Notes under the pieces: generated by a model
Seen by the model: only the letters and a program-made list of their open reading frames with translations
The model's database searches: none
What the model was told of the DNA's origin: nothing
Part shown: one piece after another, positions 10,154 to 57,072 of the stretch
Numbering within the stretch: position 1 is the first letter of the stretch
How the letters are laid out: the number at the start of each line of letters is the position of its first letter
Program-made: the position numbers and the translations under genes
Sequence record: MT446390.1
Origin: Escherichia phage TH12
Direction: 5' to 3' (one strand)
DNA length: 64,000 nt

Positions 10154-10181
10154 TAGGGGGTCAAAATATTTTTAAAAAGTA

Positions 10182-10210
10182 GTGTACATGTTTTTAGGAT
10201 ATGTTATTAT
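10182..10210 (+). promoter_or_regulatory. T4-type early promoter
   Basis: gtgtac 10182-10187, 17-bp spacer, tattat 10205-10210, followed by tatagacctatcaa element. Confidence 0.55.
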
Positions 10211-10249
10211 AGACCTATCAAAACGAAATGAGTAAATTTGGAGAATAAA

Positions 10250-11362: not shown

Positions 11363-11650
11363 ATGGATTTTATGCAAAAAAATAAAGCCGCAGTCGAACT
11401 CTATGCTCATCGTATGGTTAGTTCTACAATGCAATATAGCGAGGAAGTTCGCCAGGACTCTTCCTTGAAAGGAAAAACTAAAGCCTTAATTACCTTAGAT
11501 CGTTTGCAAAAGAATGCCATAGAGATGCTCCAGTACGACAAGAGTGTATATAAGAAAGAACAGGAAGAGAAACTTAAATCTGAAAAGTTACAGAAAACCC
11601 CGAAGTCGGTTTGGTTCAGTGGAAAAAATACTGAAAAAAGTTTCTTTTAG
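11363..11650 (+). CDS. Hypothetical protein (95 aa)
   Basis: ATG after AGAGGA. Confidence 0.55.
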   Translation: MDFMQKNKAAVELYAHRMVSSTMQYSEEVRQDSSLKGKTKALITLDRLQKNAIEMLQYDKSVYKKEQEEKLKSEKLQKTPKSVWFSGKNTEKSFF

Positions 11651-11708
11651 TTGTTTACAAGGTCTATGGTTGTGTTATTATAGACCTATCAACTACTGGA
11701 GGTAAAAC

Positions 11709-12298: not shown

Positions 12299-13294
12299 AT
12301 GAGCATTATATCTGATGCGGTAAAACATGAAATTAACGGTTTATGTGCTTCACAGATTAAAGTGTGGTTTAAAGACCATAACGATCGCAGAGCACTTAAT
12401 TATGAGCAAATTGCTATCCAAGTTCATCAATTACTGACTAGTAAATTTGATTTTCATATGCCATCTGAAATCTATACTAATCTGCCACGAGCACTTATTA
12501 AAGCGTGTAAAGGTTATGGAAAATCAATGGCTGATGGAATCTTCAGCGCGCTGAATAAACTTAACGTTCTGTCGATGATTAACTCTAACAATATCCTGCG
12601 TAATCTAGGACGTACTGATTTGTTCGGACGTGAACAGTGTAAAATGCCTTTGAAATGGATTGTTGCTCATCTTAACGAGAACCAAACACGTTTTATGGCC
12701 GTAACAGCACGTTTACAAATGGGCTTAGATCGTCAGATGAACTTTAAAACTCATCCATGTTATTCAGGTTCAACAGACTTTTATAAATGCGAGCTTCAAA
12801 AGGTCGGTGGCAAAACTGTCTTAGTAGTTCGTGTAACGTTTGAAGGACGACGTCAAGGATATTTTGACATAATCGGCTCTGGTCTTAAACATTGTGGATT
12901 TATCAACGAAGTTGATATCAAGCGAGACAGCGTTGGATACCGTATTGGGTATGTTTGTACTCTTAAAGAAGAGATTTCAGGACCAGCACCAGGACTAAAA
13001 GACGTTAGATATAAAGACGAGCTCGTTGAAGAAATAAAAGAAGTTGAATATGATATCAACCAAGAAGATGCTCTTAAAGACCTTATTGACGAACTAAACC
13101 AAGACGTTATTCCGGTTCAGAAATTTGAATCAAAACATGCTGAGCAAATCAAATACTTTGAAGCTTTGATTAACGAACTTAATGTAACTATTCAACAGAC
13201 TGACGATGAAATCTCACGATTAGCAGGCTTAAATGGTAAAAATAAAACAGAACGAGCTAATCTTATTCAAGTAGTAAAACTTCTTAAGGAATGA
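12299..13294 (+). CDS. Hypothetical protein (331 aa) with C-terminal coiled-coil-like segment
   Basis: ATG after TGAGGA; heptad-like C-terminus. Confidence 0.65.
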   Translation: MSIISDAVKHEINGLCASQIKVWFKDHNDRRALNYEQIAIQVHQLLTSKFDFHMPSEIYTNLPRALIKACKGYGKSMADGIFSALNKLNVLSMINSNNILRNLGRTDLFGREQCKMPLKWIVAHLNENQTRFMAVTARLQMGLDRQMNFKTHPCYSGSTDFYKCELQKVGGKTVLVVRVTFEGRRQGYFDIIGSGLKHCGFINEVDIKRDSVGYRIGYVCTLKEEISGPAPGLKDVRYKDELVEEIKEVEYDINQEDALKDLIDELNQDVIPVQKFESKHAEQIKYFEALINELNVTIQQTDDEISRLAGLNGKNKTERANLIQVVKLLKE

Positions 13295-13323
13295 TGTACA
13301 ACCAAGGATGGTTGGAGTATAAT
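13295..13323 (+). promoter_or_regulatory. Early promoter with spacer stem-loop (caacc-AAGGAT-ggttg) abutting TATAAT
   Basis: tgtaca 13295-13300, spacer hairpin, tataat 13318-13323. Confidence 0.6.
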
Positions 13324-13349
13324 AAATTTTTCAACATGAGGAATATAAA

Positions 13350-14309: not shown

Positions 14310-14313
14310 AACG

Positions 14314-14343
14314 GTTTACAACCAAGGATGGTTGGAGTATAAT
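14314..14343 (+). promoter_or_regulatory. Early promoter with spacer stem-loop (caacc-AAGGAT-ggttg) abutting TATAAT
   Basis: gtttac 14314-14319, tataat 14338-14343; 26-nt identical to 13298-13323 and 56460-56485. Confidence 0.6.
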
Positions 14344-14371
14344 GAATCTATCTTAACGAGAGGAAAATATT

Positions 14372-15322: not shown

Positions 15323-15627
15323 TGAAACTACGTCTTTTAGAGGATATTGATATGAGCACTAATCATGGCTTGGTTAAGTTTATTGACGATAGTTCAAAGA
15401 TTGAATTTGTTCAGCGAGATAAAATCCACGGTGAAGAAGAGTTCGTTCCTCCGGCATGGAACGAAATCATGAAAATGGTTGAACGACGTGAAAATGCTGC
15501 CAAATCGGCGGCAAAACATCCATGCCCGGAATGTGGAACTATCCAAGTCCAACTGGTTAACTGGACCACTGATAACTTGAAATTGAAATGCCGTAAATGC
15601 TTCCACAAATTTGAGAGAATATTATAA
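15322..15627 (+). CDS. Zinc-ribbon protein (101 aa)
   Basis: C-terminal CPECG...CRKC motif; TAATG overlap with upstream stop. Confidence 0.6.
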   Translation: MKLRLLEDIDMSTNHGLVKFIDDSSKIEFVQRDKIHGEEEFVPPAWNEIMKMVERRENAAKSAAKHPCPECGTIQVQLVNWTTDNLKLKCRKCFHKFERIL

Positions 15628-16040
15628 TGAGATATAGCCTTCGTTGTTTTATCGCAGCTTTAGTTTTTGCCGTTATTCCATTCATTTGGAACAGTCAGAA
15701 TACTTACATGGAAACTAAAGTAATTCCTGTGGAGGTAGTGGAATTAATCTCAGGCCAATCTACAGGAAAATATTCTAAATTAGAATTTATTGCAGTCTAT
15801 AAAGATGAGCAAGGACGAGTTTTTGACAGGCGTGTATCGCCATCGTTTTATACGCTTCTGAATAAAGGTGATACGATAGCTATAGAAATTCGTGAGATGG
15901 ATATCAAACAAACTACTAAAGATAACTTGATTTGGTTCTTTGGTACAGTGTTGTTGGTTTCTATTTGTATCACAGGTTTTATTACATGTATTGTATTTGG
16001 CATTGCATATTTAATCGATGAAAGGAAAAATAATGTTTAA
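15627..16040 (+). CDS. Membrane protein (137 aa)
   Basis: N- and C-terminal hydrophobic helices. Confidence 0.6.
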   Translation: MRYSLRCFIAALVFAVIPFIWNSQNTYMETKVIPVEVVELISGQSTGKYSKLEFIAVYKDEQGRVFDRRVSPSFYTLLNKGDTIAIEIREMDIKQTTKDNLIWFFGTVLLVSICITGFITCIVFGIAYLIDERKNNV

Positions 16041-16296
16041 AGTGTACGGGTATGACTCTACTATTCATAAATGCATTTATTGCGATAATGCGAAACGACT
16101 GCTGACTGTTAAGAAACAGCCATTCGAATTCATTAACGTTATGCCAGAAAAAGGTGTATTCGATGATGAGAAAATTGCTGAGCTTCTGGTTAAGCTTGGA
16201 CGTGAATCACAAGTTGGATTGACTATGCCTCAAGTGTTTGCTCCTGACGGAAGTCACATTGGTGGATTTGACCAACTACGAGAATATTTTAAATGA
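16033..16296 (+). CDS. nrdC: Thioredoxin/glutaredoxin NrdC
   Basis: MFKVYGYDSTIHKCIYCDNAKRLL...QVFAPDGSHIGGFDQLREYFK matches T4 NrdC; 87 aa; track start 16018 lies upstream. Confidence 0.9.
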   Translation: MFKVYGYDSTIHKCIYCDNAKRLLTVKKQPFEFINVMPEKGVFDDEKIAELLVKLGRESQVGLTMPQVFAPDGSHIGGFDQLREYFK

Positions 16297-16589
16297 GTAT
16301 TGATTTAACTTTCCCTGGCCCTTATGACCAGAACGAATTAGAAACTTTGTTATATCAAGAAATGTGCTCTCGTGCTAAGAACGATATTCAGTATGCTATT
16401 GATAATCCATGGGGCGAATTTCGGGTAATGATGGGTAATAGAATCATCGGTGTCCAATGGCGATTCGTTGGCCTTGAGCCTGAGGACTATGAAGAAAACG
16501 AGCATGGTGACTGGATTCCTGTTGGTGAATACCACTGGGAATACGGTGGTCCTGACTTCGAAGTTTCCTGTGCATGGGTAGAACAATAA
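16293..16589 (+). CDS. Hypothetical protein (98 aa), bracketed by a direct repeat
   Basis: ATGA overlap with nrdC stop; flanked by repeats 16279-16296 / 16594-16611. Confidence 0.55.
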   Translation: MSIDLTFPGPYDQNELETLLYQEMCSRAKNDIQYAIDNPWGEFRVMMGNRIIGVQWRFVGLEPEDYEENEHGDWIPVGEYHWEYGGPDFEVSCAWVEQ

Positions 16590-16607
16590 ACTGCGAGAAT
16601 ATTTTAA

Positions 16608-16943
16608 ATGAACGATATTGATTTCGCCAAAGCATATAAATTTGTAGCAACTCTTCTCGGTCCTGACGCTCCTACTAAGCTTGAAGTTTTAAATTCTATT
16701 CCGACTTCATTGGTTCGAGATGCTGAAATATGGACATGGGACGACTCGGCTGTTTGTGAAGATCTGTACATTCTGATGAATGACATGATGGTTAAAAAGC
16801 CTGAAACAATGGTTACTATTACTGTTGAAGAATATAATCGCCTGCAAGCCATTGAAGAGCTTCTGTGGAACATTGAATGTGACCTGCCGTCAGGGCTAGA
16901 ATCCTGGATTGATTATGAAGAGCTCAATAAACTCCGGGGTTAA
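16608..16943 (+). CDS. Hypothetical acidic protein (111 aa)
   Basis: ATG immediately after second repeat copy. Confidence 0.55.
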   Translation: MNDIDFAKAYKFVATLLGPDAPTKLEVLNSIPTSLVRDAEIWTWDDSAVCEDLYILMNDMMVKKPETMVTITVEEYNRLQAIEELLWNIECDLPSGLESWIDYEELNKLRG

Positions 16944-17071: not shown

Positions 17072-17242
17072 ATGCAAGTTAAATTATTGTACCGTTTATT
17101 AAAAAATGGCAAGCATGATTGGTATTTGCTTATTAAAACCGATCCGAATTTTTTCTCTGGACAACCATTTACAGTTCGTCCTACTAAACGTCAGCTTCGC
17201 AAAGCTAAACGTTCTCATCGTAACTTTTATAGAGAATATTGA
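17072..17242 (+). CDS. Small basic protein (56 aa), paralog-like to 45627-45839
   Basis: Internal ATG (MQVKLLY) after GGGAAGAG; C-terminal FTVRPTKRQLRKAKR matches FAVRPTKRQIRQEKR. Confidence 0.45.
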   Translation: MQVKLLYRLLKNGKHDWYLLIKTDPNFFSGQPFTVRPTKRQLRKAKRSHRNFYREY

Positions 17243-17243
17243 T

Positions 17244-17657
17244 ATGAATATTTCTGAAACTCGCGGTAAATGGTTCAAGATTGTTAAAGAAGACGAAGAA
17301 CTACAAGACAAGTTTCCTGAATTAAAGAAAGGAACAATCATCAAGGTAATTGGTACTACTACCGAAGATGGTTATGGCGACCATGGCATTATCGAAGTGA
17401 TGTTGAACACAGGTGAGAAACTTTGCATCTATGACCGTGATACTTCTCTTTGGTGCTTCTGGGAATCCCATTCAATAGATGAACTCGAAGAAATTGACCA
17501 AGTAGTTTGTGATGGTGGACTTGGTGAATTCGAAGGTGAACGTATTTCTTATGCTTTAGCTAAATTAGCTGGTCAAGAAAATAATGACGGTTATGAAGGT
17601 AATCTGATGCAAGCCGCAGCGGAATACATTGAATATTTAGAAAGACGTTTAAGTTAA
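17244..17657 (+). CDS. Hypothetical acidic protein (137 aa)
   Basis: Internal ATG (MNISETRG); track start 17106 lies inside upstream gene. Confidence 0.55.
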   Translation: MNISETRGKWFKIVKEDEELQDKFPELKKGTIIKVIGTTTEDGYGDHGIIEVMLNTGEKLCIYDRDTSLWCFWESHSIDELEEIDQVVCDGGLGEFEGERISYALAKLAGQENNDGYEGNLMQAAAEYIEYLERRLS

Positions 17658-56450: not shown

Positions 56451-56455
56451 AAACA

Positions 56456-56485
56456 GTTTACAACCAAGGATGGTTGGAGTATAAT
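56456..56485 (+). promoter_or_regulatory. Early promoter with spacer stem-loop (caacc-AAGGAT-ggttg)
   Basis: gtttac 56456-56461; tataat 56480-56485. Confidence 0.6.
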
Positions 56486-56515
56486 CTTTCTATCTTAACC
56501 AAACGGGAAAACATT

Positions 56516-57010
56516 ATGAATATCAATACCACGGCTACTTACATCCTGAAAGACGAAAAACAAATCAACTGGTACAGTGCTTCAGTGCGAGCTTATGAAA
56601 AGTTTTGTGAAATTTTAGGTGCCACTCAAGGTAATAGTTTCACTATTGTTAACTTCATCAAACAAGTTGAAGGCCCTTGGTTATTCTTAGAAATTAAAAA
56701 TTCATATGGTACAATTTCTACTACCGCCCTTCCAAGCACCGACTTTGAACTGTTGATTGAAGAAGTAGAACCCGTTAAAGATATCTGTATTGATATGGAT
56801 ATCACTTGTATGTACGGTACTCTGATTAAGCCTATTGAGCCTACTGATTTGTTGTGTAAATATGTTTCAATTCGACGCCCATTCGCTGGTCCAGTAAATG
56901 GATGGGTAACTGACCAATGGATTGAAGACGATGTTGAACTTCTGAACGTTGTTCATGCAGGTGATTTTAGTGTAGTTCCACGTAGTGCTGTGGTTAATAT
57001 CCTTAATTAA
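56516..57010 (+). CDS. Paralog family member 1 (164 aa)
   Basis: Internal ATG (MNINTT); C-terminal NGWVTDQWIEDDVELLNVVHAGDFSVV shared with next two genes. Confidence 0.6.
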   Translation: MNINTTATYILKDEKQINWYSASVRAYEKFCEILGATQGNSFTIVNFIKQVEGPWLFLEIKNSYGTISTTALPSTDFELLIEEVEPVKDICIDMDITCMYGTLIKPIEPTDLLCKYVSIRRPFAGPVNGWVTDQWIEDDVELLNVVHAGDFSVVPRSAVVNILN

Positions 57011-57013
57011 TGT

Positions 57014-57042
57014 TGTACATCCAAGGACGGATGGAGTATAAT
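57014..57042 (+). promoter_or_regulatory. Early promoter with compensated spacer stem-loop (catcc-AAGGAC-ggatg)
   Basis: tgtaca 57014-57019; tataat 57037-57042. Confidence 0.6.
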
Positions 57043-57072
57043 GAATTCAACTTAAACAAAGAGAGAGAAATT

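Follow-up and report, generated by a model that had tools for sequence, protein, structure and literature searches.

The window (i.e., the whole 64-kb stretch of DNA that was analyzed) comes from an RB69-like T-even phage of the genus Mosigvirus. The 2.1 kb around the repeat described below is 98.1% identical to the corresponding region of phage Mizar and 91 to 97% identical to many other Mosigvirus records. The locus contains the following features.

16033 to 16296, plus strand: nrdC (phage glutaredoxin/thioredoxin, 87 aa), the last 23 nt of which are the upstream repeat copy.
16274 to 16296, plus strand: upstream repeat copy, consisting of the native 3' end of nrdC (…QLREYFK-stop) and the ATGA stop/start overlap that opens gene 49.3.
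16293 to 16589, plus strand: gene 49.3 homologue (98 aa; T4 Y04L family), variably present among Mosigvirus genomes.
16589 to 16611, plus strand: downstream repeat copy (the stub), a detached, noncoding remnant of the nrdC 3' end, located between the stop codon of 49.3 and the ATG of ORF111 (16608).
16608 to 16943, plus strand: ORF111 (111 aa), which starts at the ATG of the downstream copy.

The assignment of nrdC rests on a glutaredoxin signature (Pfam PF00462; E = 1.8e-6; 28.5 bits against a cutoff of 22.9) together with T-even synteny, and the gene is annotated as NrdC at the same coordinates in the near-identical RB69, PhAPEC2, and Mizar records. In the list of open reading frames, nrdC has a longer frame that begins at 16018, and the start annotated in those records falls at 16033. 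The 98-aa ORF downstream of nrdC matched T4 gp49.3 (BLASTP, 42% identity over 95 aa; E = 5e-26) and phrog_4203 (E = 4e-47; residues 2 to 98 of 98). Its homologues carry the domain PF26871 (Phage_T4_Y04L) in precomputed annotations, and the local Pfam copy gave no match for the ORF itself. Y04L is T4 gp49.3, labeled "11.9 kDa protein in the pin-nrdC intergenic region." Gene 49.3 is presumably a dispensable accessory gene of the hyperplastic region.

ORF111 is a fused form of RB69ORF092c and 091c. It matched phrog_11244 (E = 2.8e-62) and phrog_3402 (E = 9.9e-32) and aligned to proteins of RB69, PhAPEC2, S16, EC101, K65, and Merlin. Its C-terminal half falls in the small phrog_3402 family, which is labeled "antitoxin" in some records. 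An identification of ORF111 as T4 gp49.2 was rejected, as similarity was absent. Searches of Pfam, NCBIfam, and PDB sequences for the function of the 98-aa ORF and ORF111 gave no significant match. A GAG triplet resembling a Shine-Dalgarno sequence is located in the stub, 10 nt before the ORF111 ATG, and is annotated as a ribosome-binding site in the Mizar record. The stub is today probably the translation-initiation region (GAG-N10-ATG) of ORF111, a role that rests on the sequence and on the annotation of that one record.

By direct reading, the upstream copy (16274 to 16296) is AACTACGAGAATATTTTAAATGA, and the downstream copy (16589 to 16611) is AACTGCGAGAATATTTTAAATGA; their contexts are …GACCAACTACGAGAATATTTTAAATGAGTATTGAT… (16270 to 16306) and …GAACAATAAACTGCGAGAATATTTTAAATGAACGATATT… (16580 to 16619). 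The copies are identical at 22 of 23 positions, differ only at position 5 (A/G), and are separated by 315 nt from start to start. An earlier note on this DNA had reported an 18-nt repeat preceded by four matches in five bases, and an ORF (16293 to 16589) lying between the copies. Both statements are borne out by the sequence. The 18-mer CGAGAATATTTTAAATGA is exact at 16279 to 16296 and at 16594 to 16611, and the five bases before it match at four positions. The ORF starts at the ATG within the upstream copy, in an ATGA overlap with the nrdC stop codon, and ends in a TAA (16587 to 16589) whose last A is the first base of the downstream copy.

With up to three mismatches allowed, the 64-kb window contains two 23-mer sites, and none of 100 shuffles of the window contained two matches. 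Exact direct repeats of at least 18 nt within 500 nt occurred in 0 of 200 second-order Markov simulations of the window, in which the longest exact direct repeat was 17 nt. The 23-nt repeat is real and not a product of chance. A 9-mer core of the repeat, GAGAATATT, occurs in six copies (1.2 expected), of which four lie in the gene-junction-rich stretch from 15.6 to 17.3 kb. The full repeat was rejected as a general junction motif: an 18-nt spaced pattern had 0 matches, and only the 9-mer core was enriched.

The earlier note had proposed an alignment with relatives lacking the ORF, to see whether a single copy is kept at the empty site. This is what we found in RB69, PhAPEC2, phi25-307, AV112, RPN187, NHEP10, JS09, and mar005P1, in which 49.3 is absent, exactly one 23-mer is present (8/8), and nrdC overlaps ORF111 directly at ATGA. 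Wherever measured, pairwise alignments showed a gap of 315 bp (i.e., one repeat plus the ORF), and two-piece BLAST matches spanned 456 nt (141 + 315 nt) in every carrier listed. The long form has repeats at both ends, the short form has one copy, and the difference in length equals the spacing of the copies, which is the pattern of a repeat-bounded indel. The single copy at the empty sites and the 315-bp difference therefore indicate that short-homology recombination bounds the unit. Approximately 78 records lack 49.3 (approximately 57 with RB69-type and 21 with PhAPEC2-type ORF111), a count made after the removal of carriers matched in two pieces; the sequence-level reading covers the eight genomes named above.

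The nrdC gene ends with the same 23-mer in Mosigvirus and in Tequatrovirus EC101, and with near-identical sequences in VR7 and T4. On these alignments, one copy is shown to be the native nrdC 3' end, and the other is shown to be a detached 23-nt relic of it. The comparisons likewise show, at the level of sequence, that the ATG of the stub is in the exact register of the nrdC/ORF111 overlap and that the unit of variation is 49.3 plus one repeat.

Phage records carrying 49.3 at ≥90% identity numbered 56. Junction BLAST queries spanning 49.3, the stub, and ORF111 matched 13 records with PhAPEC2-type and 43 with RB69-type ORF111, i.e., the stub is present in 56 of 56 carriers, although these record counts include RefSeq/GenBank duplicates and serial isolates (e.g., the LF82 series). 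It was also present in all 10 carrier sequences that were read (the window, Mizar, LF82-1, p000v, ATK47, AlbertHofmann, SF, ST0, NBG1, and APCEc01), and a metagenomic locus (L038) is a further carrier with a stub. The carriers belong to at least six named species or lineages. In LF82-1 and NBG1, the two copies are perfect (23/23). Drift of the stub affects positions 2, 12, and 23 and amounts to up to two substitutions. The stub of p000v, ATK47, AlbertHofmann, APCEc01, and L038 is ACCTGCGAGAAAATTTTAAATGA (this drifted p000v type begins ACCTGCGAGAAAATTTT…), that of SF is ACCTG…, and that of ST0 ends in …ATGT.

We compared the gene order with those of T4, VR7, Merlin, Klebsiella phage K65, EC101, S16, and three metagenomic contigs (L043 to L045). 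The pan-order is nrdC, an ORF of approximately 70 aa or 57 aa, 49.3, (an N module), a C module (the family of the C-terminal half of ORF111), 49.2, 49.1, pin, and 49; single genera lack differing members of this series. Gene 49.3 likewise lies between nrdC and pin/49 in T4, VR7, Merlin, K65, and L043 to L045. In T4, nrdC is joined directly to 49.3 by ATGA; in L044, whose 49.3 is 67% identical to that of the window, an ATGA joins nrdC to 49.3 and another joins 49.3 to the C-module gene. A C-module gene also follows 49.3 immediately, via an ATGA overlap, in Merlin, K65, L043, and L045. The window resembles the T4 order (nrdC–49.3–49.2–49.1–pin–49) in the nrdC/49.3 ATGA overlap and then in 49.1, pin, and 49, whereas T4 has 49.2 after 49.3, lacks an ORF111-family gene, and lacks a second copy of the nrdC end. 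Among the compared non-Mosigvirus T-even relatives, including T4, a second copy of the phage's own nrdC end (≤5 mismatches) was absent. The unusual feature of the window is the stub, i.e., 18 noncoding bases plus ATG(A) at the place where 49.3 usually overlaps the following gene.

As judged from these alignments, the order of nrdC, 49.3, and the ORF111 family in the window is the conserved T-even order, and 49.3 is therefore not a foreign insert. The earlier note had read the locus as a cassette insertion by short-homology recombination or duplication. The part concerning short homology at the boundaries of the unit holds, but the description as an inserted ORF or cassette does not, since the ORF is a 49.3 homologue at its conserved place. 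That note had also named two findings that would speak against its reading. One was made, in that relatives (T4, Merlin, K65, and L043 to L045) carry the ORF without a flanking repeat; the other was not, in that the full repeat is not widespread at gene junctions.

Within Mosigvirus, the 49.3 alleles are 90 to 99% identical in nucleotide sequence, versus 95.4 to 98.8% for the left flank. Because the alleles diverge (by up to approximately 10%) and the stub has drifted, the join that produced the stub is, on this dating, old and precedes the split of the present Mosigvirus 49.3 alleles.

Both states occur within three named species: phapec2 (absent in PhAPEC2 and present in AlbertHofmann), JS09 (absent in JS09 and present in ST0), and mar005p1 (absent in mar005P1 and present in NBG1 and APCEc01). 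Presence and absence of 49.3 are found with each of two ORF111 N-terminal alleles, in all four combinations (approximately 43, 13, 57, and 21 records); these alleles cannot recombine internally, because they are only 49% identical in protein. All four gametes also exist for A/G at repeat position 5 and the state of 49.3. Over the 454 nt of the left flank that adjoin the junction, RB69 (absent) and p000v (present) have one difference. A private nrdC haplotype is common to mar005P1 (absent) and APCEc01 (present), which have one difference in the last 216 nt. By comparison, mar005P1 and p000v differ at 20 sites within the last 139 nt, of which the nearest is 34 nt from the nrdC end.

By these haplotypes, both states are found on two clearly different local nrdC backgrounds, and there must therefore have been independent precise deletions or insertions, or else crossovers that took place only in the stub or in the terminal ~33 nt of nrdC. 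The comparison of the flanks shows that at least one exchange at the repeat, or no more than a few bases from it, is required, and the combinations described above point to repeated exchange there. Ordinary homologous crossovers in the conserved 33 nt, with no special role for the downstream copy, could fit the recurrence as well. Other indels in the same 2.5-kb region have a boundary homology of only 0 to 4 nt; repeat-mediated exchange is therefore not the rule here, and no general stub mechanism is evident. Two attempts to polarize the indel failed. Repeat position 5 gave no polarity, as all four combinations exist, and neither did flank identities, as the nearest neighbors of 49.3-lacking genomes are a mixture of carriers and noncarriers. 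The relationships in the left and right flanks disagree because the region is strongly mosaic.

We consider it probable that the locus arose by one old unequal join between an nrdC→49.3 arrangement and an nrdC→ORF111 arrangement, and that the two states were switched later by recombination at the repeat, including precise deletion. One parent would have had nrdC followed by 49.3 (as in T4 and L044), and the other nrdC followed by ORF111 (as in RB69). The join would have connected the 49.3 stop codon to a point 23 nt before the nrdC end, where AACT is common to both, by short homology or microhomology. Such a join would have left ORF111 with the ribosome-binding region and the ATG that it used when it abutted nrdC. 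From that point on, 49.3 and one repeat (315 bp in all) have been a presence/absence polymorphism, probably switched by precise deletion between the direct copies and/or by crossing-over of coinfecting phages within the stub or the conserved ~33 nt that end nrdC. For example, mar005P1 could have arisen from an APCEc01-like carrier through a crossover within the last 11 identical nt, and NHEP10 and JS09 retain the A of the upstream copy of carriers. The same join is an insertion of 49.3 when seen from the RB69-type arrangement and an insertion of the stub and the N module when seen from the ancestral order. The genomes without 49.3 may be deletions.

A 49.3-bearing parent without a stub was sought in sequence records, metagenomes, IMG/VR, and large protein collections. 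No 49.3 with >68% amino acid identity was found outside Mosigvirus in these searches, so that such a parent was not shown. Protein scans of metagenomes and IMG/VR gave only Mosigvirus or relatives at ≤63% identity, and a search of 5.8 billion proteins returned nothing between 96% and 68% identity to 49.3. An exact-pattern scan of IMG/VR gave 14 loci, with two copies in phiE142 only.

It is possible to read more into the repeat, namely, that the nrdC 3' end plus the start codon is a portable recombination site, that 49.3 plus one copy is reversibly excisable and reinsertable as a promoterless counterpart of the promoter-early stem-loop (PeSL) cassettes discussed below, and that selection by host defense drives the switches. 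We regard this combination as unlikely. If it were true, gene-end stubs could serve to reconstruct module shuffling across T-even genomes.

A recent foreign ORF cassette in the nrdC/ORF111 junction, with duplication of 23 nt upon insertion and with the 49.3-lacking genomes as the unaltered ancestral state, would account for the one-copy empty sites and for an indel equal to the repeat spacing. It would also agree with the stub, which must stem from a preexisting nrdC→ORF111 junction, as its ATG has the same register as in the empty sites. We nevertheless find this origin rather improbable. The ORF is gene 49.3 at its conserved place, the family occurs in other genera without the repeat, and the carriers span the at least six named species or lineages given above. 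The allele differences of up to 10% and the drifted stub indicate that the event was not recent, and integrase, transposase, and homing-endonuclease domains are absent.

The opposite polarity, in which the two-copy carrier is ancestral in Mosigvirus, the genomes lacking 49.3 each result from a precise deletion of their own, and local duplication produced the stub, draws on the ancestral position of the family order nrdC–49.3–ORF111 in T-even phages and on the ready deletion between 6- to 10-bp homologies in T4. The A variant of NHEP10 and JS09, otherwise found in the upstream copy of carriers, would fit a crossover 3' of position 5, and the derivation of mar005P1 from an APCEc01-like carrier would fit equally. 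However, a local duplication must hit the exact register of the ORF111 start, which is automatic only with a preexisting nrdC/ORF111 junction, and the single copy of RB69 is not a simple hybrid of the two copies of p000v. This scenario accordingly has, in our estimation, a low probability.

In T4-type phages, modules are shuffled by means of PeSL and ORFan cassettes (Arbiol et al. 2010, PMC2839356; Comeau et al. 2014, PMC4122927). The present locus is similar to the cassettes of RB49 and phi1 (PMC2839356) in that direct repeats enclose a single small accessory ORF within a hyperplastic region. The layout, with a repeat on both sides of the ORF, would similarly permit excision and reinsertion by homologous recombination with the neighbors undamaged. 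In contrast to PeSLs, the repeat here lacks a promoter and a stem-loop, is 23 nt long, is present in two copies, and consists of a coding nrdC 3' end and a start codon; none of the defining PeSL features (an early sigma-70-type promoter, a stem-loop/terminator, and many dispersed copies) was found. No promoter-like hexamer pair or stem-loop lies in or beside either copy, and no plus-strand promoter-like site was detected in or beside 16274 to 16296 or 16589 to 16611. Only one promoter-like site overlaps the stub; it lies on the minus strand (16630 to 16601) and matches at 9/12 positions. The region is no richer in such sites than shuffles. A scan for terminator-like sites found none at either copy, and the RNA folds no better than shuffled sequences (z = +0.40 and +0.67). 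Only two copies exist in the 64 kb, and the true promoter-like repeat family of the window lies elsewhere (13290, 14310, 56452, and 57009). For the target of a homing endonuclease or transposon, nuclease and transposase domains are absent; the 98-aa ORF had no match in Pfam or NCBIfam and matched phrog_4203 only, and inverted repeats are absent from its ends. A dedicated mobile regulatory cassette of the PeSL kind, or such a target, is therefore highly improbable.

Functional convergence of two translation-initiation regions without a common origin could draw on the recurrence of the core GAGAATATT, followed by ATGA a few bases on, at the junctions at 15610 to 15630 and 17227 to 17247, but it is scarcely credible and effectively refuted by the empty-site alignment, in which the copies collapse into one; moreover, the 22/23 match (23/23 in LF82-1 and NBG1) extends to bases that play no part in initiation, the other junctions have only approximately 9 to 16 scattered bases in common, and the stub matches nrdC coding sequence that is constrained by the protein (…LREYFK-stop).

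Returning to the old unequal join with later switches, the closest known events are those of T4, in which recombination between 6- to 10-bp microhomologies yields deletions of 0.7 to 6 kb, with one copy left, and tandem amplifications (Srikant, Guegler & Laub 2022, PMC9391042). These events occur at experimentally observable rates, and that study cites Wu 1991, Kumagai 1993, and Mosig 1987. The 18- to 23-nt repeat would be an ample substrate, because homologies of 6 to 10 bp suffice in T4 (PMC9391042). As in the T4 deletions, short direct repeats enclose a dispensable segment of the early region, the short form has one copy, and the accessory-gene region around nrdC is concerned. Unlike in T4, the repeat is longer (18 to 23 nt versus 6 to 10 bp) and is a gene-end relic from an earlier join, and the polymorphism is known from sequences of natural isolates, whereas the T4 events come from laboratory evolution.

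The kind of event is well known, and a new mechanism is not revealed; in the literature searched, we found no paper describing this nrdC stub. The locus is a clean, datable case of T-even phages gaining or dropping a single accessory gene with the neighbors undisturbed. The downstream gene keeps its translation start across the seam, and the 18- to 23-nt direct repeat makes 49.3 precisely deletable. The logic of annotation is also corrected, in that what varies is the conserved 49.3 rather than a foreign cassette, and what is odd is the noncoding nrdC stub. The finding is of modest practical value: the stub can serve as a recombination marker among Mosigvirus isolates, many of which are phage therapy candidates, and spontaneous variants with a 315-bp deletion would be expected from it.

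The T4 gene 49.3 homologue of the window (16293-16589) is a mosaic gene, as seen by comparison with the Mosigvirus phages Mizar (L003) and SF (L010). Its first ~30 nt are of the Mizar/p000v type, and the sequence after these is SF/ST0-like (98-98.6%) and Mizar-like at only 93.9%. The stub (i.e., the noncoding downstream copy of the nrdC 3' end, 16589-16611) and the downstream flank are Mizar-like (99.5%).

In APCEc01 (L021) and mar005P1 (L037), nrdC has a private, highly divergent patch toward its 3' end (last ~120 nt), which stops 34 nt short of the stop codon; mar005P1 and p000v differ at 20 sites in the last 139 nt of nrdC. Given that the patch is common to a genome with 49.3 (APCEc01) and a genome without it (mar005P1), we conclude that it is a small mosaic tract adjoining the repeat. 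In ST0, the stub (L011, 1460-1482) ends in ATGT, not ATGA, and the next ORF therefore begins MS…, not MT…. Most of pin is also missing from ST0 (gaps of 78 and 333 nt relative to the window).

The gene 3' of the stub is as follows.

16608-16943 (L002, 994-1351): ORF111

ORF111 is a single reading frame, whereas two (ORF092c and ORF091c) are annotated in RB69, and the two alignments fall out of register ~149 nt into the gene. Mosigvirus has two alleles of the N-terminal ~55 aa, with a mutual identity of only 49%. The C-terminal ~55 aa correspond to a widely conserved small protein (phrog_3402; labeled "antitoxin" in some records) that adjoins 49.3 in several genera. The match of ORF111 to the T7 gp5.9 RecBCD inhibitor (Pfam) was weak (16.4 bits, below the cutoff of 24.5).

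Several shorter sequences recur in the window.

13290-13332, 14310-14352, 56452-56494, and 57009-57051: 43-nt repeat family, four copies of TTTACAACCAAGGATGGTTGGAGTATAAT
10163-10221 and 11634-11692: 59-nt direct repeat (family D2), 73% identity
15615, 16280, 16595, 17232, 58590, and 62976: 9-mer GAGAATATT
403-432, 1159-1194, and 1484-1519: AAAAATGAAAACATATCAAGAATTTAT… (MKTYQEF…) at three ORF starts (families D5 and D7)

The 43-nt family has a palindromic spacer between sigma-70-like -35 and -10 hexamers, and one copy (14315-14343), with nrdC.3 directly 3', has a promoter-like score of 11/12. These copies are likely T-even early promoters and possibly shuffling elements of the promoter-early stem-loop (PeSL) type. 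The 59-nt repeat appears to be another intergenic, promoter-like element, and both of its copies close with an identical TGTTATTATAGACCTATCAA. The 9-mer occurs six times (1.2 expected); four of these copies fall within 15.6-17.3 kb, at or near gene junctions, directly 5' of ATGA or TGA-ATG overlaps, and it may represent a preferred junction or ribosome-binding context. Finally, the AAAAATGAAAACATATCAAGAATTTAT… start common to three ORFs suggests a small tandem family of paralogous early ORFs.
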